Below are positions 2,343-26,876 of a stretch of DNA of 64,000 nt, in pieces. This DNA is from Victivallis vadensis. GTDB lineage: Bacteria > Verrucomicrobiota > Lentisphaeria > Victivallales > GWF2-50-93. The first letter of the stretch is position 1. Every line of letters starts with the position of its first letter. Position numbers and translations under genes: made by a program. The notes under the pieces were generated by a model. That model saw only the letters and a program-made list of their open reading frames with translations, ran no database searches and was not told the origin of the DNA. Location of the stretch: positions 1,240 to 65,239 of the forward strand of contig CAMCYE010000008.1 in the NCBI GenBank assembly GCA_945883805.1, given 5' to 3'.

Positions 2343-2384
2343 TTTCTATATTTTGTGCGTATATAGATACGTTCGCAACGTATA

Positions 2385-2416: not shown

Positions 2417-2490
2417 TTTTATCTGCAACTGCTTAATTAACAGCACGTTAGCACTTTCCTAAAACTCTTCTCCACCAGTTTCTGCACTTT

Positions 2491-2513: not shown

Positions 2514-2535
2514 CTTGCACCTGGGAAAGGAAAAC

Positions 2536-6030: not shown

Positions 6031-6122
6031 GGTTTCCTTATTATACTTAGAAGAATAGTATAGGTCTGTATCGGCAGTAAGTCAAATAAATTAAATTAAT
6101 ATTACTTGAGCGCTTGAATAAT

Positions 6123-6139
6123 TATACGTGGCACGTATA
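6123..6139. promoter_or_regulatory. 17-bp palindrome TATACGTG-G-CACGTATA in the divergent promoter region (candidate operator)
   Basis: Perfect 8-1-8 inverted repeat between the XRE gene (start 6030) and the rightward ORF (6172). Confidence 0.4.
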
Positions 6140-6171
6140 GTATGCATAGTTATAAATAACATTAGGAGGAA

Positions 6172-6540: not shown

Positions 6541-6554
6541 AATTAAAGATCGAG

Positions 6555-6571
6555 TGGTTCAGCCTCAGTTC
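6555..6571 (+). promoter_or_regulatory. conserved 17-mer TGGTTCAGCCTCAGTTC containing GTTC-N7-GTTC, 73 nt upstream of dinB
   Basis: An exact second copy lies at 4337-4353. Similarity continues imperfectly for about 13 more nt in both copies. Confidence 0.35.
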
Positions 6572-6643
6572 TATGTAATGATCACGACTCAAAATAAACA
6601 GGAAAATTAATTTAACCCCGGTAACACCGGAAAAAGGAGAGAG

Positions 6644-7861
6644 ATGAAGAAAACAGACAGTATGAACGGTGGCGTGGAATTCGCTGGATCGACAAAAACC
6701 GAAAACAAGATTGAACTTGCGGCTCCGACCGTCGAGACGTTTGTCACAACTGACAGGAAAATAATAGTTGTTGACATGGATGCGTATTTCGCTTCTGTGG
6801 AACAGCGAGACAATCCAGATTTAAAAGGCAAACCTGTTATTGTATGCGAATCACTTGGAAGTCGTGGCGTAGTTTCTACCGCATCGTATGAGGCCAGAAA
6901 GTTTGGCGTCCACTCTGCCATGCCTTTATGGAAAGCGCGACAACTCTGTCCTGAAGGCATATTCCTAGAGGTAAGGATCGATGTCTATAAAATCATATCC
7001 AGCCAAATAAAAAACATCTATCTTGAATACACTGATCTTGTGGAACCAGTCGCTCTTGATGAAGCTTATCTCGATGTTACGGTCAATAAAAAAGGCATTT
7101 CTTCAGCAATTGATCTCGCCGGAGAGATACAGTCACGCATATTTTTCGAGACGAAACTGACGGCTTCTGCTGGTGTGTCTTTCAATATGTTCCTGGCCAA
7201 GCTCGCTTCTGGCATGCACAAACCATCTGGGCTTACAGAAATTACAAAAGACCAAGTTGACAGTTTGATGGACAACTTACCCATCGGCGAGTTCTACGGC
7301 GTTGGCGAGGTGACAGAATCTAAATTTCGTAACATGGGCGTTGAAACTGGAGCCGACTTGAAAAAGCTCTCCTTTGACGATCTGAGCAGGCTCTTTGGTA
7401 AACCTGGGCGGAGCTTCTATAATTTGGTGCGTGGAATAGACGAAAGGGTAGTGGATCCCAACAAGCTACGTAAATCAATTGGCAAGGAGATCACCCTCCA
7501 GGCCGATACGGAGAATGTTGAAGAAATCCTGGATAATCTTGCAACTCTATCTACAGATGTTGAAAAACTTCTTCAAGTTGAAGGTCTTTACGGGCGTACA
7601 ATCACGTTAAAATTGAAATACGGTAATTTCTCTTCGATTACTAGGCAGCAAGCTTTGAAAGAATTTACTGATGATGCAGTAATTTTCTTCAACACCGCTG
7701 TTGGACTCCTGAAAAAGACAAGGGCCGGGGAATGGCCCGTTCGTTTGGTTGGCATAGCGGTTTCAGGGTTTGCCCCGTTACCTGAAAGCGAACCTGCTGT
7801 TTCTGAATCTCCCTCACTATCGGCTACAACGAACATGGAGGTGGCACAGATTACAGCATAG
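6644..7861 (+). CDS. dinB: DNA polymerase IV (Y-family translesion polymerase)
   Basis: IIVVDMDAYFASVEQRDNPDLKGKPVIV, SYEARKFGVHSAMP and LDEAYLDV motifs. RBS AAGGAGAG. The ~40-aa N-terminal extension suggests the true start could be internal. Confidence 0.9.
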   Translation: MKKTDSMNGGVEFAGSTKTENKIELAAPTVETFVTTDRKIIVVDMDAYFASVEQRDNPDLKGKPVIVCESLGSRGVVSTASYEARKFGVHSAMPLWKARQLCPEGIFLEVRIDVYKIISSQIKNIYLEYTDLVEPVALDEAYLDVTVNKKGISSAIDLAGEIQSRIFFETKLTASAGVSFNMFLAKLASGMHKPSGLTEITKDQVDSLMDNLPIGEFYGVGEVTESKFRNMGVETGADLKKLSFDDLSRLFGKPGRSFYNLVRGIDERVVDPNKLRKSIGKEITLQADTENVEEILDNLATLSTDVEKLLQVEGLYGRTITLKLKYGNFSSITRQQALKEFTDDAVIFFNTAVGLLKKTRAGEWPVRLVGIAVSGFAPLPESEPAVSESPSLSATTNMEVAQITA

Positions 7862-8084: not shown

Positions 8085-9329
8085 ATGCCTACTGTAAAAA
8101 GCAATCAGATCCTCGCCGGCCAGATCGACAACTTCAAGACCCTCGTTGCCAAGGGTGAAATCTTCAAGGGTAAATCCTGTAAGGAACTCTTCTACCGGGG
8201 GTGCAATCTCGGAGACTTCAAGGACATCTCAAGATCCCTAGAAGGTAACGAACATCCGGAAGCTGTCAATCTTCTGGACGCAATCACAAGACATCTGCAA
8301 CCTGATGAGGACGAGCCGCAACCAAGGGAGGAATCTCCTGCCATTCCAAGCTGCCAGGTGCAGATAATCATGACACCTGTCAGTGAACTTGCCCCTCATC
8401 CGCTAGTGAAGGATTTCTATCCTATTGATCCGGAAATGCTGGCATCAATGAGTGAACTGATGAAGGAACGGGGCTATGACCCGCGCTTTCCTATCCAGGT
8501 GTGCATGAAGGACGGGAAATCTTTTGTATGGGACGGCATTACAAGGTTAAAAGCCGCCACAGATGCAGATATAAAGACCGTCCCGGTCATTGTCTCGGAG
8601 TTTTTATCGGACGATGATTTGATGGAGGCGGTAGTGGAAGTACAGCTCCGGAGGAGGAACGCCACGCCAAGGGTAATCATAGCATCAGTTGAGAGGCTTA
8701 TCGACATTGCCGGCAGAAAGGCAAAGGAAAACCAGGGCAGAAGAAACGACCTTCTGGGAACTTCTGGTCCAATTGAGCCAGAAGTTGAATACGGTGGAGC
8801 CAACGAATACATCGCAAAAGTGATTGGCAGGTCGGTGTCTACCGTGAAGCGTATCAAGGAGGTCATCGAGAACCCAACGCTAAAGCAAAAGGTGATGGAG
8901 GGGAAGATTTCACCGAACCAGGCCTATGAATCCCTGCATCCGAAGAAGTCTGACACAGGAAAATGTTCATCAATAATGGCTGAGATTCAGAAGTTTTCCG
9001 GCGGTGAAAATGAAGATGAATCTTCACTGGAATTGAAGACGGCGGAGGATTCAAACGCTGACGTCCAACCTCCTGAAGAAAACACACCGTTTGGAAAGGA
9101 TCATCGTCAGCCCGAGGCATCAGCTGTCAGCTCCGTTGTTGCAGAGAGGCTCGTCAAAGAATCTGATGAGGATACCGATACTATCCGTGTACCGATCAAG
9201 TTCCTCCAGGTCGTCGTCAAATACATATATATCAGCCATGTGCCGGAGCTGATTGATCTTGTAGGCGGCCCCGATTCAGTCGGTGGTAGAATCATCAACG
9301 AGGCTCTGGAAAAGCGGAAAGCTGCATAG
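8085..9329 (+). CDS. ParB-like N-terminal (nuclease/CTPase-fold) domain protein with central HTH-like segment and acidic C-terminal half
   Basis: LAPHPLVKDFYPIDPEMLASMSELMKERGYDPRFPIQVCMKDGKSFVWDGITRLKAA resembles the ParB/Srx fold (the usual GxxR box reads DGITR here). Strong RBS AAGGAGG. Confidence 0.75.
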   Translation: MPTVKSNQILAGQIDNFKTLVAKGEIFKGKSCKELFYRGCNLGDFKDISRSLEGNEHPEAVNLLDAITRHLQPDEDEPQPREESPAIPSCQVQIIMTPVSELAPHPLVKDFYPIDPEMLASMSELMKERGYDPRFPIQVCMKDGKSFVWDGITRLKAATDADIKTVPVIVSEFLSDDDLMEAVVEVQLRRRNATPRVIIASVERLIDIAGRKAKENQGRRNDLLGTSGPIEPEVEYGGANEYIAKVIGRSVSTVKRIKEVIENPTLKQKVMEGKISPNQAYESLHPKKSDTGKCSSIMAEIQKFSGGENEDESSLELKTAEDSNADVQPPEENTPFGKDHRQPEASAVSSVVAERLVKESDEDTDTIRVPIKFLQVVVKYIYISHVPELIDLVGGPDSVGGRIINEALEKRKAA

Positions 9330-11709: not shown

Positions 11710-12063
11710 TCAGTTCCCCTTCAAGTCCGGCGACTTGTCCGAGGATATCTGGTATCGTTCGAGGATGCGGGGACGGGATTCCAGTTCCCTTTTCCGGTCT
11801 ATGATCACCTGGGAATTATTTTTATCAGCCAATACGACGAATTCGGAATCGGAAAGGCTGACAGCCTTATAAAAGTCCTTGAAATCCCTGATCTTCTTTC
11901 CGTTCACCTCAGTTACCAGCCAGAACGTCAACCCATGATACCCCTTGTTGATTTCATCTGGGAGAGTTTGAATCGCAACCACAGGTTCACGGTAGTCTTC
12001 GGACGGATAGTTACTCAATTCGGCTAACAGGTTTACTGGAGGAGCGTCTTTCTCCCCCCACAT
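11710..12063 (-). pseudogene. PDZ-like C-terminal fragment (probable remnant of a protease/PDZ protein)
   Basis: ...GLTFWLVTEVNGKKIRDFKDFYKAVSLSDSEFVVLADKNNSQVIIDR resembles a PDZ domain. No catalytic domain lies upstream. It overlaps the opposite-strand ORF at 12062. Confidence 0.35.
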
Positions 12064-12862
12064 GCTGGGGAGAATTCCGGTTTTAGGGACAATCGGCACC
12101 ATGGGCTGGGCCGAAATATTGAACCGTGTGTATGGCGGCGATATGATTGCCAGCGGCGATGTTTTAAAGCTGGACATGCACCCCGTCCACGAGCCCGACA
12201 TCCTGTATATATCCGGTGGCCGCGACGGGTTTGGCGAATGCGAAACCAGGAAGGTGTTCCACAGCTGGTATCATTGTGCTCCGGGGTACGATGGTGGCGT
12301 CAGGACGAACTGGTGCGATTTCCATGGCCATAACGGCCGGAAATTCTATCTGCTATATCCTCAAGGCGGACACGGTGAGAACATGCCGTGGGGCGATATA
12401 AACACGATTGTAATGAGGTTTTTCGCGAGAGTCGTAGAAAGGCGCATGAATCATGACAGGTTCATAGCAGAGGCGACCAGTAGAAATTTCATAGGCATTT
12501 CAAACCTGATGAACAACAGGACGCTTGATGAAATCAAATTCGGCAGCCCTAAAGAACACGCACTTCTATGGCCACTGGCATTGCAGAACGGCTGGTTCGC
12601 CATTCAAATTGGCGATACCGGTAAAAGGCTTGGCGTCAAACCAGGGGAGATGCACAACGGCAGCCGGATAGTCGAGCAGGAAGCCAGTGAAGGCTCCGAC
12701 TGTCAACACTGGCGTCCGATACTGTGTGAGGACCGCAGTTTCTCCATTCAGAACAGGGCCGCAAGGCGCTGTCTTGATATGGATTTGGACTCCGGACAAT
12801 ATCTGCAATTATGGGACAACTGGTTCGGATCCAACCAGCGATGGAAACTTATTGGACAATAG
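12062..12862 (+). CDS. ricin-B-lectin (QxW) domain protein, N-terminal part possibly truncated
   Basis: The C-terminal ~100 aa carry QHWRP and QRWKL (QxW) motifs. The N-terminus and start are uncertain because it overlaps the minus-strand ORF. Confidence 0.45.
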   Translation: MLGRIPVLGTIGTMGWAEILNRVYGGDMIASGDVLKLDMHPVHEPDILYISGGRDGFGECETRKVFHSWYHCAPGYDGGVRTNWCDFHGHNGRKFYLLYPQGGHGENMPWGDINTIVMRFFARVVERRMNHDRFIAEATSRNFIGISNLMNNRTLDEIKFGSPKEHALLWPLALQNGWFAIQIGDTGKRLGVKPGEMHNGSRIVEQEASEGSDCQHWRPILCEDRSFSIQNRAARRCLDMDLDSGQYLQLWDNWFGSNQRWKLIGQ

Positions 12863-14228: not shown

Positions 14229-14391
14229 TTTTTACATGTCACAGCTTTTCTGGTATTGATGTCAGGGCAGGGATTATTAATACTATTCGTTTGTTATATC
14301 ACAATTATACTGATATTTAATTATGGGTGTTTGACCATTGGGAGAAGAGATGGTATTATGAGAAATGGCAGGTGAAACGGGGATAGAAATC

Positions 14392-14410
14392 TGCTACCGG
14401 AATTGCTACC
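14392..14410 (+). repeat. TGCTACC x2 with 12-bp spacing (GGTAGCA on the minus strand); candidate arm-type sites next to the tRNA-Pro relic
   Basis: aatcTGCTACCggaatTGCTACCatg. AATTGCTAC recurs at 28821-28829. Confidence 0.35.
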
Positions 14411-14482
14411 ATGAATATAAGTCATCAGCAGTTTACGCTTGTTTATAAATGAGTCTGGACAGCAGTTGAAGGATGGGCTTAG

Positions 14483-14532
14483 TCAGACTGGGGGTCTGAA
14501 GGCCGCGAGTTCGAATCTCGCCGTCCCGACCA
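14483..14532 (+). tRNA. 3' half of tRNA-Pro(GGG) (anticodon arm to CCA); truncated, att relic
   Basis: TCAGA-CTGGGGG-TCTGA (anticodon GGG), AGGCC, GCGAG-TTCGAAT-CTCGC, CGTCCCG-A-CCA. The C1:G72/A73 type end is typical of tRNA-Pro. The 26 nt upstream cannot form the acceptor 5' strand or the D-arm. Confidence 0.6.
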
Positions 14533-14782
14533 TTTTTTTAGCCCCGCTTTCATCATAAGCCAATCCGCTTCAAGTTTACCTCCTTGATTTTTGAATTCTT
14601 TTGTTCAATGTATTCCAAATATCTTTTCACCGCAAGTGAAAGATTCCGCGCCTTATCCGGTTAGTATGACTGGGAAGATTTTGCACATTGCAGTATAAAA
14701 CATATAATTCGCCTGCGGTGCTTCCGTAGGCGGGTGAAATTTTTGACTCATTGAGCCAATTTCAAAACTGCGGTTTTGACAA

Positions 14783-14820
14783 GCCCTGGTCGCCTTTGGT
14801 GCCGCCGGAGGCGGGTAAAC
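14783..14820 (+). repeat. intergenic repeat module (double mini-hairpin followed by GTAAAC)
   Basis: gccctggtCGCCtttGGTGCCGCCggaGGCGGgtaaac. Same family as 19442, 23166, 34061 and 45586. Confidence 0.7.
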
Positions 14821-14925
14821 AAAACCCTCCATTTTAATCCGCCGCGGCGGATGGAGGGCGAGGCTTGTCCGAGCCGTTTCCTGAGTTTTGAAATTAGCTC
14901 CATTATTTTAAACAGGAGAATTGCC

Positions 14926-16434
14926 ATGAAATTAGATGTTGGAGTATTGCCAAGGAAATTTGTTATCGAGTTAGTATCTCTTATTGCCTTTGTCTGTCTC
15001 TTCAGCACTGGATTTTCCATTCAGGCCGCCAATAATGAAAATCCCGGAAAAGTAAAAGGCGCAGGAAAAGAACGTGCTTTTCCCGCTCCGAAACAGGTGT
15101 GGGATGTGGCGACTGTCATCCTTGGCTGTCCGACCTCGGACAAAATCAACCTGAACATTTGTCCGAATAAGGATCTGGAATGCTTCATCGAATATGGCAC
15201 GGACAGCTCTTCGTTTGGTGGCAAAACGGAAAATCAAAACTTAAAAGCTAAATCGCCTGCAATGCTAACATTGACTAATCTTAAGGCAAACATCGAATAC
15301 AGATACCGCCTTCGTTACAGGAGTCCCGGTGAAACTGAATTTCAAAAAAGTCCTGAGTACTCATTTCATACACAACGATCACCCGGAACTCAATTCACAT
15401 TCGAACTCCAGGGTGATTCCCATCCCGAACGCTCCCCAAAACAGAATGATCCTGCGCTTTACGAACAGACACTTTTGGCTGTCGCAAAGGATCATCCTGA
15501 TTTCTTCCTGTGCATCGGTGATGACTTCAGTGTCGATACGTTGCCGGCAGTCAATGCAAAGACGGTTGAAAGCGTATACCTGAAACAACTTCCATATTTG
15601 GGACTCTTCGCACATTCGACACCGCTGTTTCTTGTCAACGGCAACCACGAACAGGCTGCCCTTTGCAATCTTAACGGCACTGCGGACAATGTCGCCGTAT
15701 GGGCGCAGAATAACAGGAATAAGTATTTCCCACAGCCGTACCCAGATTCGTTTTACTCAGGTGATGCCGAGAAAATCGAGCACATCGGGCTGTTGCGCGA
15801 TTATTATGCCTGGACATGGGGCGATGCGCTCTTCGTCGTGCTCGATCCGTACTGGCATTCGAAGTCGCCTGTCGACAATGTATTTAACGGCGAGAAGAAA
15901 CGGCGTGACCTATGGGATATTACGATTGGAGATGCACAATACAAATGGCTGAAGGAGACGCTTGAGGGTAGCCGGGCCAAGTTCAAATTCATCTTCGCCC
16001 ACCACGTCAACGGCACCAGCCGCGGCGGAATAGAGAAGGCGGACTATTTCGAATGGGGAGGCAAAAATGAGAACGGAACCCCCGGCTTCAAAGAGAAAAG
16101 GCCGGCATGGGAACTGCCTATTCACCAGCTGATGGTGAAATATGGTGTCACAATATTTTTCCAGGGACATGACCACATCTTCGCCAGACAGGTTAAGGAC
16201 GGAGTGACATATCAGACTTTGCCTGATCCGGCAAACCCCAATTATGTCTTTAATAACAAAGACGCGTACCAGAGCGGAGATATCTTTCCCGGCTCGGGAA
16301 GAGTCCGTGTCTCAGTAAGTCCGGAAAAAGTATGTGTGGAATATATCCGCTCATATCTGCCCAAGGATGCGACCAAGGAACATCCCGACGGTGAAATCGC
16401 CTTCAAATACGAAATACCGGCTGCGAAAAAATAA
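14926..16434 (+). CDS. secreted calcineurin-like metallophosphoesterase
   Basis: GDSHPE, IGDDFS, VNGNHEQ, FAHHV and QGHDHIF motifs. Start at ATG 14926 after AGGAG, with a signal-like N-terminus. The upstream 50 codons of the tracked ORF are repeat-element sequence. Confidence 0.85.
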   Translation: MKLDVGVLPRKFVIELVSLIAFVCLFSTGFSIQAANNENPGKVKGAGKERAFPAPKQVWDVATVILGCPTSDKINLNICPNKDLECFIEYGTDSSSFGGKTENQNLKAKSPAMLTLTNLKANIEYRYRLRYRSPGETEFQKSPEYSFHTQRSPGTQFTFELQGDSHPERSPKQNDPALYEQTLLAVAKDHPDFFLCIGDDFSVDTLPAVNAKTVESVYLKQLPYLGLFAHSTPLFLVNGNHEQAALCNLNGTADNVAVWAQNNRNKYFPQPYPDSFYSGDAEKIEHIGLLRDYYAWTWGDALFVVLDPYWHSKSPVDNVFNGEKKRRDLWDITIGDAQYKWLKETLEGSRAKFKFIFAHHVNGTSRGGIEKADYFEWGGKNENGTPGFKEKRPAWELPIHQLMVKYGVTIFFQGHDHIFARQVKDGVTYQTLPDPANPNYVFNNKDAYQSGDIFPGSGRVRVSVSPEKVCVEYIRSYLPKDATKEHPDGEIAFKYEIPAAKK

Positions 16435-16446: not shown

Positions 16447-16473
16447 TGTAACCTTTCATCGGTGAAAGCGTCT
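16447..16473 (+). promoter_or_regulatory. ECF-type promoter P1 (TGTAACC-N15-CGTCT) upstream of the ECF sigma gene
   Basis: TGTAACC 16447-16453, CGTCT 16469-16473; 16 nt between AAC and CGT. Confidence 0.65.
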
Positions 16474-16497
16474 ATATTATGGAAAGGCACCTTGGAA

Positions 16498-17145
16498 ATG
16501 GCGGAAATGCCAGAATCAATAAATGCGCAAGAGGCAGACAGCATAATTGTAGGATCATTGAACTTAGATGAAGTCGATGTCATTAGCAGGATACTCGACG
16601 GATCTGTCAATGATTTTGAAGTGCTTGTTAAAAGATACAAGGGAAAAGTCGGGAGGATCGTAGCCTCCAGGGTGAGGCCGGAGGATGTCGAAGACATAGC
16701 GCACCAAACGTTTGTCAGGGCGTTCAAATCACTGGGATCATTCAGCGGAAAGGCGCCTTTCGAGAATTGGCTGTCAAAACTTGCTGTTCACTGCTGTTAC
16801 GATTATTGGAGAAGGCGGCAGCGTGAAGACGCAAGGCTTGTCCGGCCGGGAAAAGAGGCTGATTATCAGGCTTGGCTTGACAGGGTTTCAGCCGCCGCCA
16901 ACGAGAGTGATTTGGATGAGGTGGCTAAACTGGAAGAAACTCAGTTGGCTCTCGAACAGGCGATGGAATGTCTTGATGCCGATGAAAGATGGCTCCTCGA
17001 GTCGCACTACTACAAGGCGATGCCTCTTAAAGAGGCGGCCGCGACATTGGGATGGAGCCTGGTGAAGACGAAGGTCAAGGCGATGCGTGCAAGAATGAAA
17101 CTCAGGAAGGCGATTGATAAATTAACCAGCGGGTGGTCGAAATGA
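16498..17145 (+). CDS. ECF (group 4) RNA polymerase sigma factor
   Basis: Region 2 (DVEDIAHQTFVRAFKSL...FENWLSKLAVHCCYDYWRRR) and region 4 HTH (MPLKEAAATLGWSLVKTKVKAMRARMKL). ATG 16498 is chosen because GTG 16462 would lie inside the promoter. Confidence 0.85.
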   Translation: MAEMPESINAQEADSIIVGSLNLDEVDVISRILDGSVNDFEVLVKRYKGKVGRIVASRVRPEDVEDIAHQTFVRAFKSLGSFSGKAPFENWLSKLAVHCCYDYWRRRQREDARLVRPGKEADYQAWLDRVSAAANESDLDEVAKLEETQLALEQAMECLDADERWLLESHYYKAMPLKEAAATLGWSLVKTKVKAMRARMKLRKAIDKLTSGWSK

Positions 17146-17522
17146 AAAAAACAATTCAAAAAATCGAAGAAGTTTTCAAGGCCTCGCATCTTGCTGGGGA
17201 AAACAGGCCCGAACCTGTTTTCAGTGCCGATTGGCAATCCCGGCTCATGCTGGAAGTGAAATGCACAGCCTGGTCGGCGCGCACCCTGCGGGACAATGAA
17301 TCCCCTCTGAATATTTTCGCCTTCCGCCTAGGCTGGGCCATGCTTTGCTTCGCATTTGTTGTCTCAGCCGTCTTCTTCACGGTCGGAAAAAACTCGCTTA
17401 ACAAGACCGCGGAAGTCGGAATCAAGTCCTCGCTATGGGAGATAGTTGATCAAAATGTGAATGTATACGATGTGAATTTGTTTGATGAGACCGGGAAGGC
17501 TAAAGAGGGTGCGGTGAAATGA
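17142..17522 (+). CDS. putative single-pass anti-sigma factor
   Basis: ATGA overlap with the sigma stop. One hydrophobic segment (FAFRLGWAMLCFAFVVSAVFFTV). The call rests on position only. Confidence 0.5.
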   Translation: MKKTIQKIEEVFKASHLAGENRPEPVFSADWQSRLMLEVKCTAWSARTLRDNESPLNIFAFRLGWAMLCFAFVVSAVFFTVGKNSLNKTAEVGIKSSLWEIVDQNVNVYDVNLFDETGKAKEGAVK

Positions 17523-17992
17523 AAAAAAAGGGAATAGTTTTCGGCTTCCTTCTGTCATTGTTTGCGGGAATCATAATTGGGGCGTCCGGAGGTTTTTTAC
17601 TGTTTCCAAAGATTTCCCCGCCTCCGCCGCCTCAGGGTTCAAGTGACAAAGACAAGGCCGGCGGACCTCCGCCTCTTACCGCTGACGCCCTCCGTGAAAA
17701 GATTATGAAGCGTCTTGAAAGTGAACTTGAATTGACCGGGGAACAAAAAACGCAGGTTGAAAAGGAAGTGAAGCTTTTCGCCGACGAACTTGGGGTATTC
17801 CATACGGGTAACCGTGAGAAACTGATATCGATGTTTGATGCTTTCAAGATGAAACTTGCCGGTTTGCTCTCCAAAGAGCAGGCCATACGCCTTGAAAAGA
17901 TTTCAAGGGGAATATGCAGCCCTACGCCACCTCCTCAGGAACATGGTCAGAAACAGGGGCCAGAAGACCGCCGTCCGCCGAAGAACGATTGA
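17519..17992 (+). CDS. periplasmic LTxxQ-motif (Spy/CpxP-like) protein
   Basis: ATGA overlap with the upstream gene. N-terminal membrane anchor, Pro-rich linkers, LELTGEQKTQVEKEV and LLSKEQAIRLEKI motifs. Confidence 0.55.
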   Translation: MKKKGIVFGFLLSLFAGIIIGASGGFLLFPKISPPPPPQGSSDKDKAGGPPPLTADALREKIMKRLESELELTGEQKTQVEKEVKLFADELGVFHTGNREKLISMFDAFKMKLAGLLSKEQAIRLEKISRGICSPTPPPQEHGQKQGPEDRRPPKND

Positions 17993-18022
17993 AATATATT
18001 TTTCTCGCAATGGGAAAAATCA

Positions 18023-18049
18023 TGTAACCTTTCCTTCGTGTTCGCGTCT
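18023..18049 (+). promoter_or_regulatory. ECF-type promoter P2
   Basis: TGTAACC 18023-18029, CGTCT 18045-18049; same spacing as P1; 50 nt upstream of ATG 18099. Confidence 0.65.
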
Positions 18050-18098
18050 TTCTCTGTAGTTCAGTCAATAGAAAAGATTTCTCAGGAAGGGCGCTAAA

Positions 18099-19427
18099 AT
18101 GAAAAACAACGGATTGACAGGAAAGATTTGCGCGGGTCTGATCGGATTGATTTTATTTTGCGGAATAATGAAGGCGCAGGAAATGAATCTCGCGCAGACA
18201 TTGTCCGACGGGGCTCAGCGCACGACTCTGGCATTTGCCGGACTCGCAATGATTACCGGGAACTTGGAGGCGCAGACCTTCTTCCCTCCGGGCAAGGTTG
18301 CCGACTATACCGGTTTCCAGCACCTGCGCGACAATGACCCGGACAACATGGGGCACAACACCAGTTTCCTCACCAGGGTGGCCGAAAACGTCATCTACAT
18401 TCTGGACGACACCCAGCTTACCCAGCTGGCTGATCTAGCCGTGGCCCAGGAGGAAAAGTTCAATCTCTACGGCTACAAGCGTTATCCACTTATGGAAGCA
18501 TTTCGCCGCCTGCTTGAAGGAGATATTCCCGCCGGTTCCCCCGGACTGAATCTCAATGCCGTCAAGAAGGCCTCACGCGAACTTTATATCCTCGACGGCC
18601 AGATCAGCTTCGACCGCGCCCTCCTGTATGCCAATATCCTCAACTCACTGGATGCCGCCCAGAAAGCTCATCTGGACGCGATGAAAGGCAAAGGCTGGAA
18701 CTCGTGGCCGGACACCTCGGCAAACGAATACCAGGCCATCATCAAACCTAAGATGCAATCGTTGCCCAGAGGATCAGCAGTGCTAGTAATGACCTATGCC
18801 AGCGACCTGTTCAGCTGGTACGCCGGTTCAATTGAGGCTGATGTATATTTCTGTCCTGAACGTCATGGAACATATTACGGCTCCTTCTACATCAAGGATG
18901 CACCGGCCATAGGACACGAAGGTTACAGCATAGACGAACAGCTTACTGCCACTGCAGGTTCAGCGCTCTGCGACAGTTCCAAAGGATACGTAACGGCAAG
19001 TCAGGCTTCCCTGATGTCAAGCCTGATTGACACACAGCGGGACAACCTCTACGAAGGCAGCAGCAATATCGTCGATGTGAGAACACAGATTGCCATACAG
19101 TTGCGCGGACTGCTGACTTCGACGACCTCCAGTGATTCTGTAAAGACACAGGTGCTCGAATTGTCGTCCGTCTACGGGGATTTGGACGGGGAGAGCAACT
19201 ATCATTACGCCACCGTTTTCGCAGAGTTCTACAATACGTTGAGCGTCTCACAGAAGACCCAGCTTGCGGCTCTTCGCAAATCCATTATGTCCGGCACATA
19301 TTCGGACGGGACGCCGTTCGACTATACGCTCTGCACAATGCCTTTCCTGTATTCGGCCGAAATCACGGACCTGACCCTTCTTGATCCGTATATCGACAAC
19401 ACCGATTATCTGTTCTTCGAACCGTGA
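18099..19427 (+). CDS. secreted protein of unknown function with several LxxxQ (LTxxQ-like) segments
   Basis: Signal-like N-terminus. LDDTQLTQLADL, LDAAQKAHLDAM and LSVSQKTQLAALR. RBS AGGAAGG. Confidence 0.6.
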   Translation: MKNNGLTGKICAGLIGLILFCGIMKAQEMNLAQTLSDGAQRTTLAFAGLAMITGNLEAQTFFPPGKVADYTGFQHLRDNDPDNMGHNTSFLTRVAENVIYILDDTQLTQLADLAVAQEEKFNLYGYKRYPLMEAFRRLLEGDIPAGSPGLNLNAVKKASRELYILDGQISFDRALLYANILNSLDAAQKAHLDAMKGKGWNSWPDTSANEYQAIIKPKMQSLPRGSAVLVMTYASDLFSWYAGSIEADVYFCPERHGTYYGSFYIKDAPAIGHEGYSIDEQLTATAGSALCDSSKGYVTASQASLMSSLIDTQRDNLYEGSSNIVDVRTQIAIQLRGLLTSTTSSDSVKTQVLELSSVYGDLDGESNYHYATVFAEFYNTLSVSQKTQLAALRKSIMSGTYSDGTPFDYTLCTMPFLYSAEITDLTLLDPYIDNTDYLFFEP

Positions 19428-19441
19428 AAGAACGTAGCACA

Positions 19442-19480
19442 GGCCCTGGTCGCCTTCGGCGCCGCCCAAGGCGGGTAAAC
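19442..19480 (+). repeat. intergenic repeat module (double mini-hairpin followed by GTAAAC)
   Basis: ggccctggtCGCCttcGGCGCCGCCcaaGGCGGgtaaac, 15 nt after the stop at 19427. Confidence 0.7.
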
Positions 19481-19592
19481 ATCTTGCCTGTGTTCTTCGT
19501 CCGGGCATACCGCCCGTTCCATATGAATTAAGAAAGAGAAAGCGACAGGCGGGACGCCTATCCTACATTGCCGGAAAATAAAAGCTTCCACC

Positions 19593-19619
19593 TGTAACCT
19601 TTTCTCTAATCCCGCGTCT
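19593..19619 (+). promoter_or_regulatory. ECF-type promoter P3
   Basis: TGTAACC 19593-19599, CGTCT 19615-19619; same spacing; 62 nt upstream of ATG 19681. Confidence 0.65.
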
Positions 19620-19680
19620 TTGTTTACAGATTACAGTGAATAGACATCCATTGGCATTTTGACTGAAAGGAAAACTTTCG

Positions 19681-21438
19681 ATGAAAAAATATTTTTTGAT
19701 CTTGGCACTTTTGATGTGCATGTCGGCGTTCGTTTCGGCTCAGGGGAAAATACCCGGACTGGCACTGATTCCGGGAGGATCTTTTGAAATGGGGGATCAC
19801 CATGGCTTTGTCGATCCCAAACATGGAGGCGATGAAATTCCGGTTCATAATGTGCGGCTCGATTCATTCTACATCGGCATAAACGATGTGAACACAAAAG
19901 AATATTGCGATTTTTTGAATTCGGCGTTGGCGCAGAAACAGATAACGGTAAAACAGGGAGGAGTGTATCTCGTCAATGGGAACGATCTGCTTTGCGAAAC
20001 TCGCGAAATGTCCCCTTACAGCCGCATCGGCTGGACTGATGGCAAGTTCACAGTTCTCGACCGGAAGGAAAATCATCCTATAATCTGCATCCGCTGGCCG
20101 GGCGCAGCGGCTTATTGCAACTGGCTGAGTGCACAGAAAGGATTGCCGCTCTGCTATAACACTTCCACGTGGGACTGTGATTTCAACAAGAGCGGGTATC
20201 GTCTGCCGACCGAGGCGGAGTGGGAATACGCCGCACGCGGCGGTCAGCAGAAGCCTTATTGGAATTTCCCGTGGGCCAATGAGGCGGATCCGGCAAAAGC
20301 CAACTGGCCGGAATCGAAAAACCCATACCGCAGCGGACCTGAGCCCTGGACTGTGCCGGTCGGATTCTTCGACGGGAAACTGCACAGCAAGTCCGATTAC
20401 GGCTGGCCAGGCATGCAGGAAACTTTTCAAACGGCGAATGGCGCGAACGGCTATGGGCTCTATGATATGGCGGGCAATGTCTGGCAGTTCGTGAATGACT
20501 GGTATGTCCGTGATTACTATTCCTACAGTCCCGCGGAAAATCCACCCGGACCGGAACGCGGAAGCCTCATGCCGGACGGCAAGGCGTACCGCGGAATGCG
20601 CGGTGGAAACTGGTTCAACGGCGAGAACGGTCACAGCCGAGTGTCGAACCGCAATCCGTCTTATTGGCGCGGACCGAAGGATCCGGATCATCCATATTAC
20701 CACATCGGATTCCGTGTCGCTTTACCGGTGAATGCCGAGAGTCGTCCTATTTTAAAACCGACACCTGTACAGAAAGTGGAACGTGGCGAAGCCGCACCAA
20801 AAGCACAGGCTTCAAAAGATTCCAATAGACTTCCGCGTCAGGAAACGTCGCAGACAGTCGGCAACAGTTCGTTCATTTTGCGAAGTTCGCAGGTTTCTGA
20901 CGGCGGGAATTTGCCGGCGGAGTTCACCGGAGACGGAAGCGGTGACACCCTGCCGTTGGAATGGAGCGGAGCCCCAAACGGAACTAAAAGCTATGCGCTC
21001 ATCATGCACCACATTGATCCCAAAGGTGTCGCAAAATGGTATTGGATTCTATACAATATTCCGGCAGACGTCCAAAGCCTTTCCAAAAATGTAAAAGGGG
21101 TCGGGACATTGGGAAACAACAGTGTAAATGAACGGGCGGAATATGCGCCGCCGCATTCCAAGGGGCCGGGCCCAAAAAATTACATTTATACCGTTTACGC
21201 CTTGTCGGCCGCTCCGCAACCCAGTGTCTCGCCTGACAAAGTAAACCGCGAAGTATTGCTGGAGGCCATGAAGGATAAGATACTGGCCTCTGCGGAACTG
21301 CACGTTGTTTACTCGCGCCCGGAGGGAAGTGTTGAAAAAGCGGAGGAGGGCCGTCCCGGTCCGCCACCTCCGCCAAGAGACAGACCGAATGATTCCGATC
21401 CCAAATCCCGTCAAAACGAACCACCACCCAAACAATAA
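19681..21438 (+). CDS. secreted fusion protein: FGE-sulfatase (SUMF1-like) domain plus YbhB/PEBP-family domain, with a Pro-rich tail
   Basis: N-terminal signal. RLPTEAEWEYAARGG, GLYDMAGNVWQFVNDWY and RGGNWFN (FGE fold). C-terminal PLEWSGAPNGTKSYALIMHHIDPKGVAKWYWILYNIP (PEBP/YbhB pattern). Confidence 0.75.
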   Translation: MKKYFLILALLMCMSAFVSAQGKIPGLALIPGGSFEMGDHHGFVDPKHGGDEIPVHNVRLDSFYIGINDVNTKEYCDFLNSALAQKQITVKQGGVYLVNGNDLLCETREMSPYSRIGWTDGKFTVLDRKENHPIICIRWPGAAAYCNWLSAQKGLPLCYNTSTWDCDFNKSGYRLPTEAEWEYAARGGQQKPYWNFPWANEADPAKANWPESKNPYRSGPEPWTVPVGFFDGKLHSKSDYGWPGMQETFQTANGANGYGLYDMAGNVWQFVNDWYVRDYYSYSPAENPPGPERGSLMPDGKAYRGMRGGNWFNGENGHSRVSNRNPSYWRGPKDPDHPYYHIGFRVALPVNAESRPILKPTPVQKVERGEAAPKAQASKDSNRLPRQETSQTVGNSSFILRSSQVSDGGNLPAEFTGDGSGDTLPLEWSGAPNGTKSYALIMHHIDPKGVAKWYWILYNIPADVQSLSKNVKGVGTLGNNSVNERAEYAPPHSKGPGPKNYIYTVYALSAAPQPSVSPDKVNREVLLEAMKDKILASAELHVVYSRPEGSVEKAEEGRPGPPPPPRDRPNDSDPKSRQNEPPPKQ

Positions 21439-21447
21439 GGAGCCGCA

Positions 21448-23112
21448 ATGAAAAAATATGATGAAACGAGTCTTAGTTCACGTATGTTACGAACTTGGAA
21501 AACCATAAATCCCGTATGCATCTTCGGATTGCTTGCCTTGTTTGCGGCATCGCCGGTCATCGGGCAGGATGCGAATAGGCCGCCACAGGATGAAAACCGA
21601 CCGCAACGCTCGGATTCCGGGCCGGGCAGCAAAGACGGGGCTACCATGGGTGTGCGTGCAGTCATGTCGGAAAACAGGACTCCGACATCGCCGAATCCCG
21701 GACAGACTGTCGGACTGTTTCTCAACACGCCCAAAGCGTTCAAGGGATACACATTATTTGCGCCGAAACACAACAACATCATTTATTTGATCGACAATGA
21801 TGGACGCATCGTCAACCAGTGGAAGAGCTCATATGAGCCTGGTCAGTCGGTACACCTCAAACCCAACGGCAACCTGCTGCATTGCTGCTTCACGAAAAAC
21901 AAAGGATTCACCAGCGGCGGTGAAGGGGGACGTGTCGAAGAATTCGACTGGAACGGGAATCTGATCTGGGAGTTCGAGTATTCGAACGACCAGCATCTCT
22001 CGCATCATGACATCGCGCCGCTGCTGAACGGCAACATCCTTATGCTTGTCGTCGAGAAGAAATCCTATGAGGAAAGCCTCGCCGCCGGTTTCAATCCGGA
22101 CATGCTGCGCGACCGTCAATTGTTTCCGGATTCCATCATCGAGGTGGAGCCGACATATCCCAAGGGCGGAAAGATCGTCTGGGAATGGCGTGTCTGGGAT
22201 CATCTCATCCAGAATTCCGACAAGAACAAACCCAATTACGGCGATATCTCCGCGCATCCGGAATTGATTGACGTTGCCTGCAACGGCCGGCCGGTGCCAG
22301 CGTTCTGGAACCACATGAACTCCATCGCCTACAATCCGAAACTCGATCAGATTGTGCTCAGTGTTCGCGGTTGCAACGAGATTTGGTTTCTCGATCACAG
22401 CACCACAACAAAGGAGGCCGCCAGCCACTCCGGCGGAAAGCACGGCAAAGGCGGAGATCTCATTTACCGCTGGGGAAATCCCGCCGCCTACAAGCGCGGA
22501 ACTGTCGCCGACAAACAGCTTGTCCAGCAGCATGACGCCCAGTGGATTCCCGACGGATATCCCGGCGCGGGCAATGTCACCATATTCAATAACGGTTATG
22601 ATCGCGGCTGGTCAAGCATCGAGGAAATAGTTCCCCCGCTTGATGCAAACGGACGTTACATCCTGGACTCAGGCAAAGCTTACGGTCCGGAAAAACCGGT
22701 CTGGCGCTATGAGACGAAAAACCGCACAGATTTCTTCTCGTCGGAAATATCCGGCGCGCACCGTCTGCCAAATGGAAACACACTGATCTGTGCCGGTGTA
22801 ATCGGCAACCTGTTCGAGATCACGCCTGCCGGTGAGACTGTCTGGCAATATGTGAATCCTATGGTCCGCGGCGGAATTCTGGCGCAGGGGGAGATTCCCG
22901 GGAAAGACATGCGAGGTCATCTCTGGAACGCCGTCTTCAAGATTCACCGCTATGCGCCGGATTATCCCGGACTTGCCGGACGCGATCTCGCTCCAAAAGG
23001 CGTAATTGAGCTGCCGGCCGCACAGAAAGGGAAAACTGGACTTGACAAGGCCGACGCACCAGCCGAGGACCGCGACCGCTTCAGCAGGGGCAAAGGCGGC
23101 CAAAGACCGTAA
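21448..23112 (+). CDS. aryl-sulfotransferase-like (ASST/Arylsulfotran_2-type) beta-propeller protein, paralogue 1
   Basis: Starts 10 nt after the FGE-PEBP stop, with RBS AAGGAG. The pattern is shared with paralogue 2: HHD, VWEWxxxDH, WxHxNS, GGDxxYRxGxPxxY, QHDxxWI and LPNGNTxIC. Confidence 0.6.
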   Translation: MKKYDETSLSSRMLRTWKTINPVCIFGLLALFAASPVIGQDANRPPQDENRPQRSDSGPGSKDGATMGVRAVMSENRTPTSPNPGQTVGLFLNTPKAFKGYTLFAPKHNNIIYLIDNDGRIVNQWKSSYEPGQSVHLKPNGNLLHCCFTKNKGFTSGGEGGRVEEFDWNGNLIWEFEYSNDQHLSHHDIAPLLNGNILMLVVEKKSYEESLAAGFNPDMLRDRQLFPDSIIEVEPTYPKGGKIVWEWRVWDHLIQNSDKNKPNYGDISAHPELIDVACNGRPVPAFWNHMNSIAYNPKLDQIVLSVRGCNEIWFLDHSTTTKEAASHSGGKHGKGGDLIYRWGNPAAYKRGTVADKQLVQQHDAQWIPDGYPGAGNVTIFNNGYDRGWSSIEEIVPPLDANGRYILDSGKAYGPEKPVWRYETKNRTDFFSSEISGAHRLPNGNTLICAGVIGNLFEITPAGETVWQYVNPMVRGGILAQGEIPGKDMRGHLWNAVFKIHRYAPDYPGLAGRDLAPKGVIELPAAQKGKTGLDKADAPAEDRDRFSRGKGGQRP

Positions 23113-23165
23113 CTTTAGTCGCTGGTCGTTAGTCGTCAGTAATTGGTCAATCTTCTGAAACTGCC

Positions 23166-23247
23166 GTTGGTGTTCACGGCCCTGGTCGCACGCCTGAGGC
23201 GCGTAAACCTTAGGCGCTGCCAGAGGCAGGTAAACTTTAGCGTGTCT
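23166..23247 (+). repeat. composite intergenic repeat (GTTGGNGTTCACGGC, two hairpin-GTAAAC modules, then TTTAGCGTGTCT)
   Basis: gttggtgttcacggccctggtcgcaCGCCtgaGGCGcgtaaaccttaggcgCTGCCagaGGCAGgtaaactttagcgtgtct. Homologous to 45586-45648. Confidence 0.75.
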
Positions 23248-23326
23248 TTTTCTTTAAAACTTGGTCACGCGGCCACTTGGAATCTTTTGAAAACTTTGAA
23301 ATTCCTATACTTGAAAAAATATGTTC

Positions 23327-23353
23327 TGTAACTTTGCCTCCCATCAAACGTCT
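23327..23353 (+). promoter_or_regulatory. ECF-type promoter P4
   Basis: TGTAACT 23327-23333, CGTCT 23349-23353; same spacing; upstream of the second ASST-like gene. Confidence 0.6.
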
Positions 23354-23403
23354 ATAACTATAAAATGAACCGTGAACTGAATTGCAACCAAAGGATTCCG
23401 CAT

Positions 23404-24945
23404 ATGAAAGAAATAATTCTTCTTCTGGCTGTGCTTTCCACTTCGGCCCTGGCTTATGAACGACTGCAGGGACCGACCGAACTGCTGTTCTGCGACAAGG
23501 ACAAAGCTCTCAAGGGCTACACTTTCTTCGGCGTCGGCAGCCGGACCTACCTGCTGGATATGGAAGGTCTCGTTGTCCATACCTGGCCCATCGGGACGAA
23601 TCCGCATCTGCTCGACAATGGAAATATTATTGATGCTTCAAAGGATGATCCCAGCGGGTTCCAGGGTTTCAAGGAAGTTGACTGGGACGGAAAAACTGTC
23701 TGGGAATACACTGAGAAACGCGAGGGTTACGCTCCACATCACGACTGGGTGCGCATATTCAACAAAAAGTTAAACGCACCCACCACTCTTTACATCGCCA
23801 ACAAATCCATAACCAATGAGCAGGCCGTCGCCGCCGGTGCCGATCCGAAGAAAGGTCCATATCGCGAGGGGCAAATGGATGCAGTCGTCGAAGTGGACAT
23901 GCAGGGAAATGTTGTGTGGGAATGGTGCTTCTTCGATCATGTGGTACAGGACATTGATCCGGAAAAGCCTAACCATGTCGGACAAGGAAAGACAATAGCC
24001 GACTATCCCGGCCGAATAAACATCAATATGCCGGGACGCCCGCTAAGGCGTGACTGGCTGCACTGCAATTCTATGGATTACAATGCGGAGTTGGGACACG
24101 TCGTAATCAACTCCGTGCAGGGAGAACTGTATGTGATTGATCACGACGGCACTTTTGTCGCCAGCGATTCTAAGGCAGGTATCGCCAAAGCCGCAGGACC
24201 GGCTGGCGATTTCCTCTACCGCTTCGGAGATCCGGCACGCTATGCACAGGGAGATCCGCCGAAAGTTCTGGAAAACTGGGACTCGGCGACTTCCGGGCAC
24301 AAGCAGATGGGTGGAGCGCACGACGTCCACTGGATTCGCCCGGGTCTGCCGGGAGCAGGGCACATCATGGTCTTCAACAACGGCCAGTATCTGTATCAGC
24401 GCACTCCGCAGTCATCCATACTCGAAATCAATCCATTCCTGGATGCTAACGGACGCGATACTGGCAAGTATGTAAATCCTCCAAATGCAGGGTACCGCCG
24501 CGAGTCATACGAAAAGGACACGCATAACCAGCCGCGTCAGATCTCCAAGCAGGTTGTCTGGAGCTACAGGTCTGTAAACAGCCACGGTTTCTTCAGCCAT
24601 ATAGGTTCGAGCGGTCAGCGTTTGCCGAACGGGAATACGTTCATATGTTCCGATACCGAAGGGCATTTCTTCGAGGTGACGGCAGACGGAAAACTCGCAT
24701 GGGAATACATAAATCCAGTCACGCGAGACGGCGCAGTGAGAACTATCGAAGACGTCTTGCCGATGGCAAACTCCGCGTTCCGGGCCTACCGATATGCCGT
24801 CGATCATCCGGCCTTCAAGGGACGTGATCTGACACCGAAAGGAACCATCACCGAACGCGCCTCACAAGGACTGGATATCCAACCCAAGAGTCGTAAAGCC
24901 GAAGATCGCCAACCAGCCCGTTATAATAAACGGCAAGAACAATAA
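23404..24945 (+). CDS. aryl-sulfotransferase-like beta-propeller protein, paralogue 2
   Basis: Clear paralogue of 21448-23112. The start is taken at MKEIILLLAVLSTSALA (signal peptide, 23404). ATG 23365 would lie about 5 nt from the predicted transcription start. Confidence 0.6.
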   Translation: MKEIILLLAVLSTSALAYERLQGPTELLFCDKDKALKGYTFFGVGSRTYLLDMEGLVVHTWPIGTNPHLLDNGNIIDASKDDPSGFQGFKEVDWDGKTVWEYTEKREGYAPHHDWVRIFNKKLNAPTTLYIANKSITNEQAVAAGADPKKGPYREGQMDAVVEVDMQGNVVWEWCFFDHVVQDIDPEKPNHVGQGKTIADYPGRININMPGRPLRRDWLHCNSMDYNAELGHVVINSVQGELYVIDHDGTFVASDSKAGIAKAAGPAGDFLYRFGDPARYAQGDPPKVLENWDSATSGHKQMGGAHDVHWIRPGLPGAGHIMVFNNGQYLYQRTPQSSILEINPFLDANGRDTGKYVNPPNAGYRRESYEKDTHNQPRQISKQVVWSYRSVNSHGFFSHIGSSGQRLPNGNTFICSDTEGHFFEVTADGKLAWEYINPVTRDGAVRTIEDVLPMANSAFRAYRYAVDHPAFKGRDLTPKGTITERASQGLDIQPKSRKAEDRQPARYNKRQEQ

Positions 24946-26764: not shown

Positions 26765-26796
26765 AGGTACAAGTTTGGTACAAGTTTGGTACAAGT
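26765..26796 (+). repeat. tandem 11-bp repeat GGTACAAGTTT x3 (candidate arm-type sites, right end of island B)
   Basis: aggtacaagtttggtacaagtttggtacaagt. Same unit and orientation as 2491-2513; 62 nt from the right direct repeat. Confidence 0.6.
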
Positions 26797-26857
26797 AAAG
26801 GTGATTTTTGAGACTTTTGGATTAGAGTTTGAGGCTAAATGGTGGAGATGGTGAGCT

Positions 26858-26876
26858 TCCCGTCAGCTCCACCATT
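26858..26876 (+). repeat. right 19-bp direct repeat (attR core) = 3' end of the ssrA-like gene
   Basis: TCCCGTCAGCTCCACCATT, identical to 2400-2418. It is preceded by TGGTGGAG (26841-26848), the inverted copy of CTCCACCA. Confidence 0.65.

Follow-up and report, generated by a model that had tools for sequence, protein, structure and literature searches.

An ECF-type sigma factor with a predicted four-promoter regulon on an integrative element of a Victivallales genome

A 64-kb stretch of the Victivallis vadensis assembly GCA_945883805.1 (contig CAMCYE010000008.1; this whole stretch of 64,000 nucleotides is called the window below) carries a gene for a sigma factor of the extracytoplasmic function (ECF) class, followed by genes for exported proteins, with the same pair of short boxes standing at four places between the genes. 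Does this sigma factor drive its own operon and the exported proteins from these four sites, and what would such a response act on? We conclude, with a probability of about 85%, that the locus, which lies on an integrative element of a Victivallales (Lentisphaerota) genome, encodes an autoregulated ECF sigma switch that controls a regulon of four promoters. An initial annotation of this DNA had made the underlying observation correctly, and its interpretation is essentially right.

A shared promoter motif and the sigma factor predicted to read it

Searching the window for TGTAAC-N16-CGTCT, we find four exact matches (P1 to P4), all intergenic and all on the plus strand (Table 1). Dinucleotide-preserving shuffles contain 0.06 matches on average, and none of the 100 shuffles reaches four. 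In every copy, AAC and CGT are separated by 16 nt, TTT directly follows AAC(C/T), and at 10-20 nt 5′ of the -35 element there is an A-rich tract (GAAAAA...). Measured from the last T of CGTCT, the gaps to the start codons of the sigma, X442, FGE-PEBP and ASST2 genes are 24, 49, 61 and 50 nt, respectively. The initial annotation had reported the same four positions, the 16-nt spacing and the T tract, which the pattern count and the shuffles bear out, and its distances of 25-62 nt are the same within counting convention.

We also scanned both strands with a position weight matrix (PWM) built solely from 14 distinct orthologous sites of other genomes. P1, P3, P4 and P2 take ranks one to four in the 64 kb. 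The next-best position on either strand scores just 10.7, and therefore there is no fifth copy within the window. Two further candidates were rejected: the region 5′ of the metallophosphatase gene (14229-14925) has no PWM match, and an AAC-N16-CGTCT sequence at 12026, 5′ of a ricin-lectin gene, lacks TGTAAC and has a low PWM score.

AAC and CGT boxes at a 16-17 nt spacing typify ECF promoters, for example those of Bacillus subtilis sigma-X, sigma-W and sigma-V. The 215-aa product of the gene behind P1 carries both Sigma70 domains of Pfam above their cut-offs, in agreement with the annotated ECF call, and scores 80.1 on TIGR02937, the NCBIfam model of the ECF superfamily (cut-off 42.9). It falls under the cut-off of every NCBIfam equivalog model. 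Domain searches of the window's open reading frames (ORFs) found no other sigma gene.

Performing searches of genome and metagenome contigs, we collected 13 loci with orthologs of this sigma factor (67-76% identity); the taxon labels among them include two Lentisphaeria/Lentisphaerae metagenome-assembled genomes (MAGs) and one Oligoflexia. All 13 have TGTAACCTTT-N12-CGTCT, usually followed by ATATTA, 25-60 nt 5′ of the sigma gene, and the intergenic sequence around the motif differs from locus to locus. The strict motif occurs 19 times in 84 kb of these loci, always on the gene-sense strand, and not once in 266 kb of 17 control loci that lack this sigma family. Presence 5′ of all the orthologs, together with absence from the controls, is the pattern by which comparative analysis commonly recognizes an autoregulated ECF promoter. 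Usually, ECF sigma factors control their own expression, and the genes of their regulators and targets lie next to theirs (PMC7826278).

In six of the loci (L007 and L013 to L017), a second copy of the motif follows the third gene of the sigma operon. In L007 and L013 the genes behind it encode a PEBP that stands alone, an X442-type protein with 38-40% identity to that of the window, and a metallophosphatase. L014 starts in the same way and its contig is cut inside the PEBP gene, L015 has an X442 gene (82% identity to the window X442 over the first 60 residues), and the L016 contig ends just past the promoter. L017 carries the same three families in another order, with a second metallophosphatase copy. 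Thus the second motif precedes PEBP, X442-type or metallophosphatase genes in all five loci with downstream sequence. Read from this gene content, the predicted conserved core opens with the sigma gene and the genes of the +1 membrane protein and the +2 helical protein, followed by PEBP, X442 and metallophosphatase genes. The window version has PEBP as a fusion with an FGE-fold domain and two additional ASST-like genes, and its metallophosphatase gene lies directly 5′ of P1 with no ECF motif of its own. By this comparison, the predicted regulon is conserved across the ortholog loci and has grown in the window.

The sigma gene and the two genes behind it are joined by ATGA overlaps at 17142-17145 and 17519-17522, both as annotated. 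The first partner is a 126-aa protein that always co-occurs with the sigma factor in the orthologous loci. Its +1 position, ATGA coupling, single-span topology and co-occurrence make it a putative anti-sigma factor. The second, a 157-aa protein, is a putative periplasmic co-sensor or modulator, and its helices carry LTGEQ and LSKEQ motifs. It has no match to Pfam LTXXQ (PF07813; gathering threshold 24.3 bits) even at E <= 10, and its AlphaFold (AF2) model gives no meaningful fold matches. The LTxxQ label that the initial annotation gave to this protein and to the 442-aa X442 holds as motifs and sub-threshold similarity but not at the Pfam threshold. A common origin of the two was rejected by profile comparison (hhalign probability 0.3).

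We propose the following mechanism. The sigma gene would be translationally coupled to the 126-aa gene in the anti-sigma position and to the 157-aa LTxxQ-motif gene, and the sigma factor would recognize TGTAACCTTT-N12-CGTCT, with transcription probably starting just 3′ of CGTCT. P1 would drive the sigma operon in a positive feedback, P2 the X442 gene, P3 the FGE-like-PEBP and ASST1 genes, and P4 the ASST2 gene. The hairpins after X442 and ASST1 would part the transcription units, and this would account for the separate promoter of each. When no signal is present, the 126-aa membrane protein would sequester the sigma factor, and a periplasmic cue would free it. The cue may be sensed by the anti-sigma candidate through its short tail in the periplasm, by the LTxxQ-like protein, or by both, as with CnrX-CnrY or CpxP. 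All outputs of the regulon carry signal peptides, so the response would act in the periplasm or at the cell surface.

Table 1 Features of the sigma factor cluster and its integrative element, with two clusters from other genomes. Positions are those of the window, except in the last two rows.
Feature	Position	Strand	Remarks
P1, ECF-type promoter of the sigma operon (predicted)	16447-16473	+	-35 TGTAACC, -10 CGTCT; pattern match and PWM 44.1; kept 5′ of 13/13 sigma orthologs
P2, ECF-type promoter of the X442 gene (predicted)	18023-18049	+	Pattern match and PWM 21.5; same arrangement in L015
P3, ECF-type promoter of the FGE-PEBP/ASST1 unit (predicted)	19593-19619	+	PWM 31.6
P4, ECF-type promoter of ASST2 (predicted)	23327-23353	+	-35 variant TGTAACT; pattern match and PWM 22.2
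ECF sigma factor, 215 aa	16498-17145	+	Pfam Sigma70_r2 1.8e-12, Sigma70_r4_2 3.9e-8
126-aa single-pass membrane protein, putative anti-sigma	17142-17522	+	+1 position; ATGA overlap with sigma; one hydrophobic span in the translation
157-aa protein, putative periplasmic co-sensor/modulator	17519-17992	+	N-terminal membrane anchor, Pro-rich linker, four helices
X442, exported 442-aa all-alpha protein	18099-19427	+	Large uncharacterised family
Strong hairpin with D1 repeat, probable terminator/insulator	19430-19498	+	Directly after X442; minimum free energy -29.1 kcal/mol, z -2.4
Exported FGE-fold/PEBP fusion	19681-21438	+	FGE-fold domain without catalytic Cys pair; PEBP domain of YbhB/YbcL type; Pfam
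ASST1, exported ASST-family protein	21448-23112	+	9 nt after the FGE-PEBP gene; Pfam Arylsulfotrans 7.9e-24, 84.8 bits
Hairpin region, two D1-like repeat copies	23163-23245	+	After ASST1
ASST2, second exported ASST-family protein	23404-24945	+	Pfam Arylsulfotrans 9.1e-16, 58.2 bits
Exported calcineurin-like/PhoD-like metallophosphatase	14926-16434	+	Pfam Metallophos
tmRNA 3′-end fragment	2353-2418	+	T-arm and acceptor (...GCTCCACCA); Rfam local match, E 2.8e-6
Left 19-nt repeat, attL-like	2400-2418	+	Last 19 nt of the tmRNA fragment; repeat family D7
Right 19-nt repeat, attR-like	26858-26876	+	
Tandem GGTACAAGTTT repeats, just inside the left end	2483-2520	+	Repeat family D2; candidate arm-type integrase-binding sites
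Tandem GGTACAAGTTT repeats, just inside the right end	26766-26803	+	
Tyrosine integrase gene	2503-4170	+	Adjoins the left repeat; Pfam Phage_integrase 3.1e-12 and DUF6538
Effector cluster of L005	2692-11689 of L005		Metagenomic
Effector cluster of L026	5999-21938 of L026		

The exported proteins and their partners in other phyla

The product of the P2 unit, X442, has no Pfam, NCBIfam or PDB relative by sequence or profile search. It has more than 3000 homologs, and the family counts 693 clusters at 50% identity. Identities of the best 120 homologs to it are 69-84%; these come from contigs attributed to Syntrophus, Competibacter, Planctomycetota and others, and in 18 of these 120 a PEBP domain is present in the same polypeptide. 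Aligning 34 family members, we find about 160 invariant positions, concentrated in two loops (PPGKVADYTGFQ.LRDND....GHN and YFCPERHGTYYG.FY.KDAPA.GHEGY) with invariant Cys, His, Asp and Glu residues. The AF2 model is all-helical (pTM 0.78) with low confidence in both conserved loops, and no PDB fold matches it. Sub-threshold matches to Pfam LTXXQ occur in 20 of the 34 relatives (best E 1.9e-4).

The P3 unit opens with a fusion protein in which Pfam identifies an FGE-sulfatase domain over residues 25-347 (3e-44) and a PBP domain (1e-22, 81.4 bits against a cut-off of 24). The latter scores just under threshold on TIGR00481 (52.0; cut-off 57.75), and its PDB matches are the bacterial PEBPs 3n08, 1fux and 1vi3. 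When the FGE-fold domain is aligned to the Thermomonospora curvata FGE (6s07), Asn and Ser stand at the two catalytic Cys positions: GGNWFNGENGHSRVSNR aligns with GGSFLC--HESYCNR, in which the Cys of FLC and the Cys of SYC are the catalytic pair. Both catalytic cysteines are replaced, and therefore the domain is not a formylglycine-generating enzyme. Thus the annotated FGE call stands for the fold but fails for the enzyme. A genuine FGE acting on an unseen sulfatase was rejected on the same ground. As the annotation had noted, there is no sulfatase gene (PF00884) among the window ORFs of at least 120 aa.

Pfam also agrees with both Arylsulfotrans calls, ASST1 and ASST2 lying well above the cut-off of 24.2 bits. 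In a weak alignment of ASST1 to Escherichia coli AssT (E 0.004), H356 and R374 align and a His lies one residue off H436; these three we take to be the active-site residues of AssT. ASST1 shares 79% identity with P0125, which comes from another MAG, and ASST2 shares 85% with a protein of Tepidisphaeraceae (Planctomycetota).

In L007, L013 and L017, orthologs of the metallophosphatase are encoded within the gene run behind the ECF promoter or immediately after it, and others lie in the clusters of L026 and L029. This distribution makes the metallophosphatase a member of the conserved effector set. The four-unit gene set of the initial annotation is upheld in its promoters and units, but the adjoining metallophosphatase must be added to the conserved set, here without a motif of its own.

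The cluster also contains a GC-rich hairpin repeat of about 43 nt (GCCCTGGTCGC...AGGCGGGTAAAC) in intergenic positions (14698-14821, 19439-19481 and 23179-23236), with weaker copies at 45599-45636 and 34087. It resembles a REP-like element or a terminator, and it was not found in any fetched locus.

We also checked the company that X442 and its partners keep in other genomes. In Syntrophus (L002), a PEBP-X442 fusion and a paralog lie beside a CusRS-like two-component system, and in Competibacter (L004) X442 adjoins a BaeSR-like one. L006 has X442 and PEBP, with both a CpxR/OmpR-like response regulator and a short CpxA-like kinase ORF a few genes upstream; L028 has a two-component system, X442 and X442-PEBP. 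In L005, three X442 paralogs, each 72-73% identical to the window X442, surround one 1109-aa FGE-PEBP-ASST fusion. L026 encodes PEBP-X442, a double ASST2, FGE-SGL-ASST1, PEBP and the metallophosphatase, divergently from an ECF sigma gene and a gene for a 1002-aa Ser/Thr kinase. This pair of ECF factor and kinase appears to be a different regulatory solution for the same effector module. L029 has FGE, PEBP, ASST1, ASST2 and metallophosphatase, mostly in the order of the window. X442 and PEBP are thus adjacent or fused in L002, L006 and L028, and the effector set co-clusters with fused domains in L005, L026 and L029. These recurring clusters and fusions make the effector set a recurrent, fusion-linked module under different envelope-signalling regulators; the output set looks like a portable, envelope-directed module.

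We know of no function assigned to bacterial PEBP proteins so far. A review of their genomic context finds fusions and operons to be rare and lists none of the X442, FGE, ASST or metallophosphatase partners (PMC8793217). Nor did we find a description of the gene combination in the searchable literature, in line with the earlier remark that it was not recognized as a described system.

A wider proposal is tentative, and we put it somewhat below even odds. X442 may be the centre of an undescribed, horizontally mobile periplasmic pathway in which it works physically with PEBP and, in many genomes, with FGE-fold, ASST-type propeller and metallophosphatase partners. Different phyla would have wired this pathway independently to ECF/anti-sigma pairs, to an ECF factor with a Ser/Thr kinase, or to Bae/Cpx/Cus-like two-component systems. 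The Victivallales element would have captured it by means of a host-type ECF promoter before each unit.

The integrative element and its neighbourhood

The cluster lies inside a segment of about 24.5 kb bounded by exact 19-nt direct repeats, TCCCGTCAGCTCCACCATT, the left of which ends a tmRNA 3′ fragment. With the adjoining integrase gene and the tandem repeats just inside both ends (Table 1), this anatomy supports the view that the cluster is carried on an integrative element, and mobility is suggested by the same anatomy. The island carriage proposed in the initial annotation agrees with the direct repeats, the integrase and the tmRNA fragment. A second tyrosine integrase gene (851-2320, minus strand) stands immediately left of the tmRNA fragment, which suggests that elements have integrated in tandem at a single ssrA site.

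The visible sequence holds no intact tmRNA gene, and Rfam at gathering thresholds returned nothing for the window. No empty site was recovered in relatives with an 87%-identical AraC neighbour; other genes are found there, with neither att core nor tmRNA. The GC content of the island (0.480) shows no contrast to that of the chromosome (0.483) and is uninformative as island evidence. A related genome (GCA_965085625.1; loci L030 and L031) carries two copies of the AraC/aldo-keto reductase/amidohydrolase/ADH cluster that flanks the island of the window, and one of these adjoins a type I restriction-modification and AbiE defence region, so the neighbourhood is variable.

3′ of 27 kb the genes are increasingly of the housekeeping kind, including those for TIM, SecG, GyrB, IMPDH and PheA. 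The host GyrB is 97% identical to a Victivallales MAG protein and 65-73% identical to its matches beyond the few closest contigs; a Kiritimatiellaeota-labelled match has 70% identity. In comparison, ASST2 reaches 85%, ASST1 79% and X442 about 74% (72-75% to the compared homologs from Syntrophus, Competibacter and other unrelated contigs). This difference points to a recent cross-phylum transfer of the effector genes and/or to very strong constraint on their proteins.

The rest of the island holds cargo typical of mobile elements at 5506-7861 (a double-HTH Cro/C1-type regulator and a Y-family, ImpB/UmuC-type DNA polymerase gene). Between these genes and the cluster lie genes for an exported ricin-type lectin-domain protein (12062-12862) and a PDZ_3-domain protein (11710-12201, minus strand). 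Two copies of a 36-nt palindromic repeat (GGAACTTCTGGTCCAATTGAGCCAGAAGTT...), with 94% identity, lie in the island's left half at 4655-4690 and 8757-8792. ARAGORN calls a tRNA-Pro(GGG)-like sequence at 14455-14532, 394 nt 5′ of the metallophosphatase gene; its Rfam tRNA score of 25.2 bits is under the 29-bit threshold. This may be a tRNA, either degenerate or brought by the island, or else a former attachment site. On the chromosome side there are two RND efflux systems (47052-51628, minus strand; 56830-63545, plus strand), neither with the ECF motif. The membrane-fusion protein of one of them has heavy-metal-binding (HMBD) motifs, and a TetR regulator is encoded at 51865-52449.

Alternative readings and known systems

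Several points weigh against the autoregulated four-promoter regulon. The promoters are predicted from MAG sequence, and the scan covers 64 kb, so further regulon members or another cognate sigma may lie elsewhere. The metallophosphatase gene has no PWM match 5′ of it in the window. The 126-aa protein has no Pfam or NCBIfam match and no detectable anti-sigma domain; of the annotated single-pass anti-sigma, the membrane span and the ATGA coupling hold. The AF2 model of the 157-aa protein, made from the single sequence, has four helices and is poor (pLDDT 64). Weak Pfam LTXXQ matches in five of its seven orthologs (best E 0.0055) are all sub-threshold, as is the 11.6-bit score of X442. Finally, the effector chemistry is pure inference.

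Within the preferred reading, our low-confidence guess is that anionic esters of sulfate or phosphate, on aromatic or envelope substrates, are bound or transferred, and that the helical proteins protect in the manner of Spy/CpxP. Three ideas, overlapping in part, are held with low confidence: periplasmic protein protection may be Spy/CpxP-like, by analogy; metal sensing or binding may be Cnr/Zra-like, also by analogy; and the ASST-like proteins, the metallophosphatase and the anion-binding PEBP pocket may transfer or hydrolyse sulfate or phosphate esters.

What the response is for could be read differently in two ways, both of which we judge unlikely. In the first, the cluster is a metal-stress response of the CnrYXH or ECF281/ECF290 type, in which the LTxxQ-like protein and X442 bind metal and the other exports are accessory. 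The ECF281 and ECF290 groups have an anti-sigma factor at +1 and a 'heavy-metal resistance' protein at +2 (PMC7826278, Casas-Pastor et al. 2021), an order that the sigma gene, the +1 membrane protein and the +2 LTXXQ-like protein of the window match. One ortholog of the 157-aa protein has a weak Metal_resist match (E 0.041), the two-component system adjoining the Syntrophus X442 best matches a heavy-metal sensor family, and the two most conserved X442 loops hold the invariant Cys, His, Asp and Glu. However, every one of these family matches is sub-threshold, and the other two-component neighbours best match BaeSR and CpxAR. Moreover, no efflux pump or metal transporter stands under the motif, and metal resistance is not a known role of ASST-like proteins, of PEBP or of metallophosphatases.

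The second, to which we give no better odds, is that the regulon shields the periplasm from phenolics or humic substances. Phenols would be sulfated, or conjugated in some other way, by the ASST-like enzymes, while the helical LTxxQ-like proteins would counter tannin-type protein damage as Spy does. In E. coli, tannins induce spy, as do Bae and Cpx, and X442 has Bae- and Cpx-like systems as neighbours. The aligned AssT residues of ASST1 fit this idea, and contig names (AlinenLipids, TBL ... HYPO) suggest lake MAGs or metagenomes for several sigma orthologs; 'humic' is a reading of these names. Members of the ASST family act on phenolic substrates (PMC11576661). Against this, the ASST alignment is weak with its catalytic His offset, the module core in other phyla is X442 and PEBP without ASST, and no source of donor sulfate was identified.

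The reader of the promoters could also be another one. The four sites might be real and serve an alternative sigma encoded elsewhere, or be operators of a DNA-binding regulator. The link of sigma and motif comes from sequence comparison, the visible genome is the 64-kb window, and a gene of the same set, the metallophosphatase, goes without the motif. Nevertheless, the motif tracks this sigma family in all 13 ortholog loci and is absent from the controls, and no further sigma gene was found in the window. The motif also consists of two dissimilar boxes in fixed spacing and orientation, 24-61 nt from the starts, with no dyad or direct-repeat symmetry. We regard another reader as very improbable. 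That the copies are functionless chance matches or relics of a duplicated segment is hardly credible: P1 and P2 are 76% identical over 33 nt (repeat family D6), but likeness between copies is confined to the two boxes while spacers and flanks differ, no shuffle reached four, and the motif is kept across genomes with diverged flanks.

With the autoregulated ECF regulon as the preferred reading, the locus offers a computationally well-supported pair of sigma factor and promoter that could serve directly as an orthogonal part for gene expression, in a phylum whose genetics are hardly developed. It is also a rare case of a complete ECF regulon, as seen in 64 kb, on an integrative element. The predicted targets lead to a set of exported proteins that recurs across phyla, has no assigned role and is centred on the X442 family, and the repeated fusion of PEBP to X442 and to FGE-ASST proteins gives a concrete handle on bacterial PEBP function.

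How does the locus compare with known systems? Its element resembles tmRNA (ssrA) islands in the tyrosine integrase at the tmRNA 3′ end, the repeat of the tmRNA terminus at the far end and the neighbouring second integrase. It differs from them in that the window shows no intact tmRNA gene, the GC content does not stand out, and the search of relatives recovered no empty site.

Among the exported proteins, the FGE-fold domain shares its fold with FGE/SUMF1 and PorK/GldK; its best NCBIfam match is GldK, the cut-off of which it misses, and its PDB matches include FGEs and PorK. Unlike FGE/SUMF1, it has both catalytic cysteines replaced, no nearby sulfatase and a PEBP fusion. ASST1 is like E. coli AssT (PDB 3elq) in family and export, and in the weak alignment it has residues opposite H356 and R374 and a His next to H436. 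It differs in its very distant pairwise similarity to AssT, in having no dsbL/dsbI partner, in the presence of two paralogs and in the fusion of the domain to FGE-like and PEBP domains in other genomes. The helical proteins recall Spy, CpxP and ZraP of E. coli, exported LTxxQ-motif proteins beside envelope-stress regulators (Bae, Cpx and Zra induce the E. coli ones). X442 is three to four times larger than these, with two extremely conserved Cys/His/Asp/Glu loops and an LTXXQ score below threshold.

The sigma operon itself is similar to CnrYXH of Cupriavidus metallidurans (ECF291) and to ECF281/ECF290, since an ECF sigma factor is encoded together with a small anti-sigma in the membrane, putative in the window, and with a helical protein of the periplasm that has a membrane anchor, and an autoregulated promoter is expected. 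The gene order differs from that of cnrYXH, the window regulon has no efflux pump, and Pfam detects no zinc-finger, RskA or CnrY signature in the anti-sigma candidate. The likeness seen to ECF281/ECF290 is one of gene order. The +2 'heavy-metal resistance' protein there belongs to the LTXXQ clan, whereas the +2 protein of the window is under the Pfam LTXXQ and Metal_resist thresholds.

The promoters of B. subtilis sigma-X, sigma-W and sigma-V have a -35 element ending in AAC and a -10 element starting with CGT, 16-17 nt apart, with a T-rich tract after the -35 element. The window motif is like them in its boxes, spacing and T-rich tract, and unlike them in its extended boxes, TGTAACCTTT and CGTCT(ATATTA), and in its Lentisphaerota host. 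In summary, the regulatory switch is a textbook-type ECF system, and as a regulatory device it is a new, unclassified example of a well-known kind.

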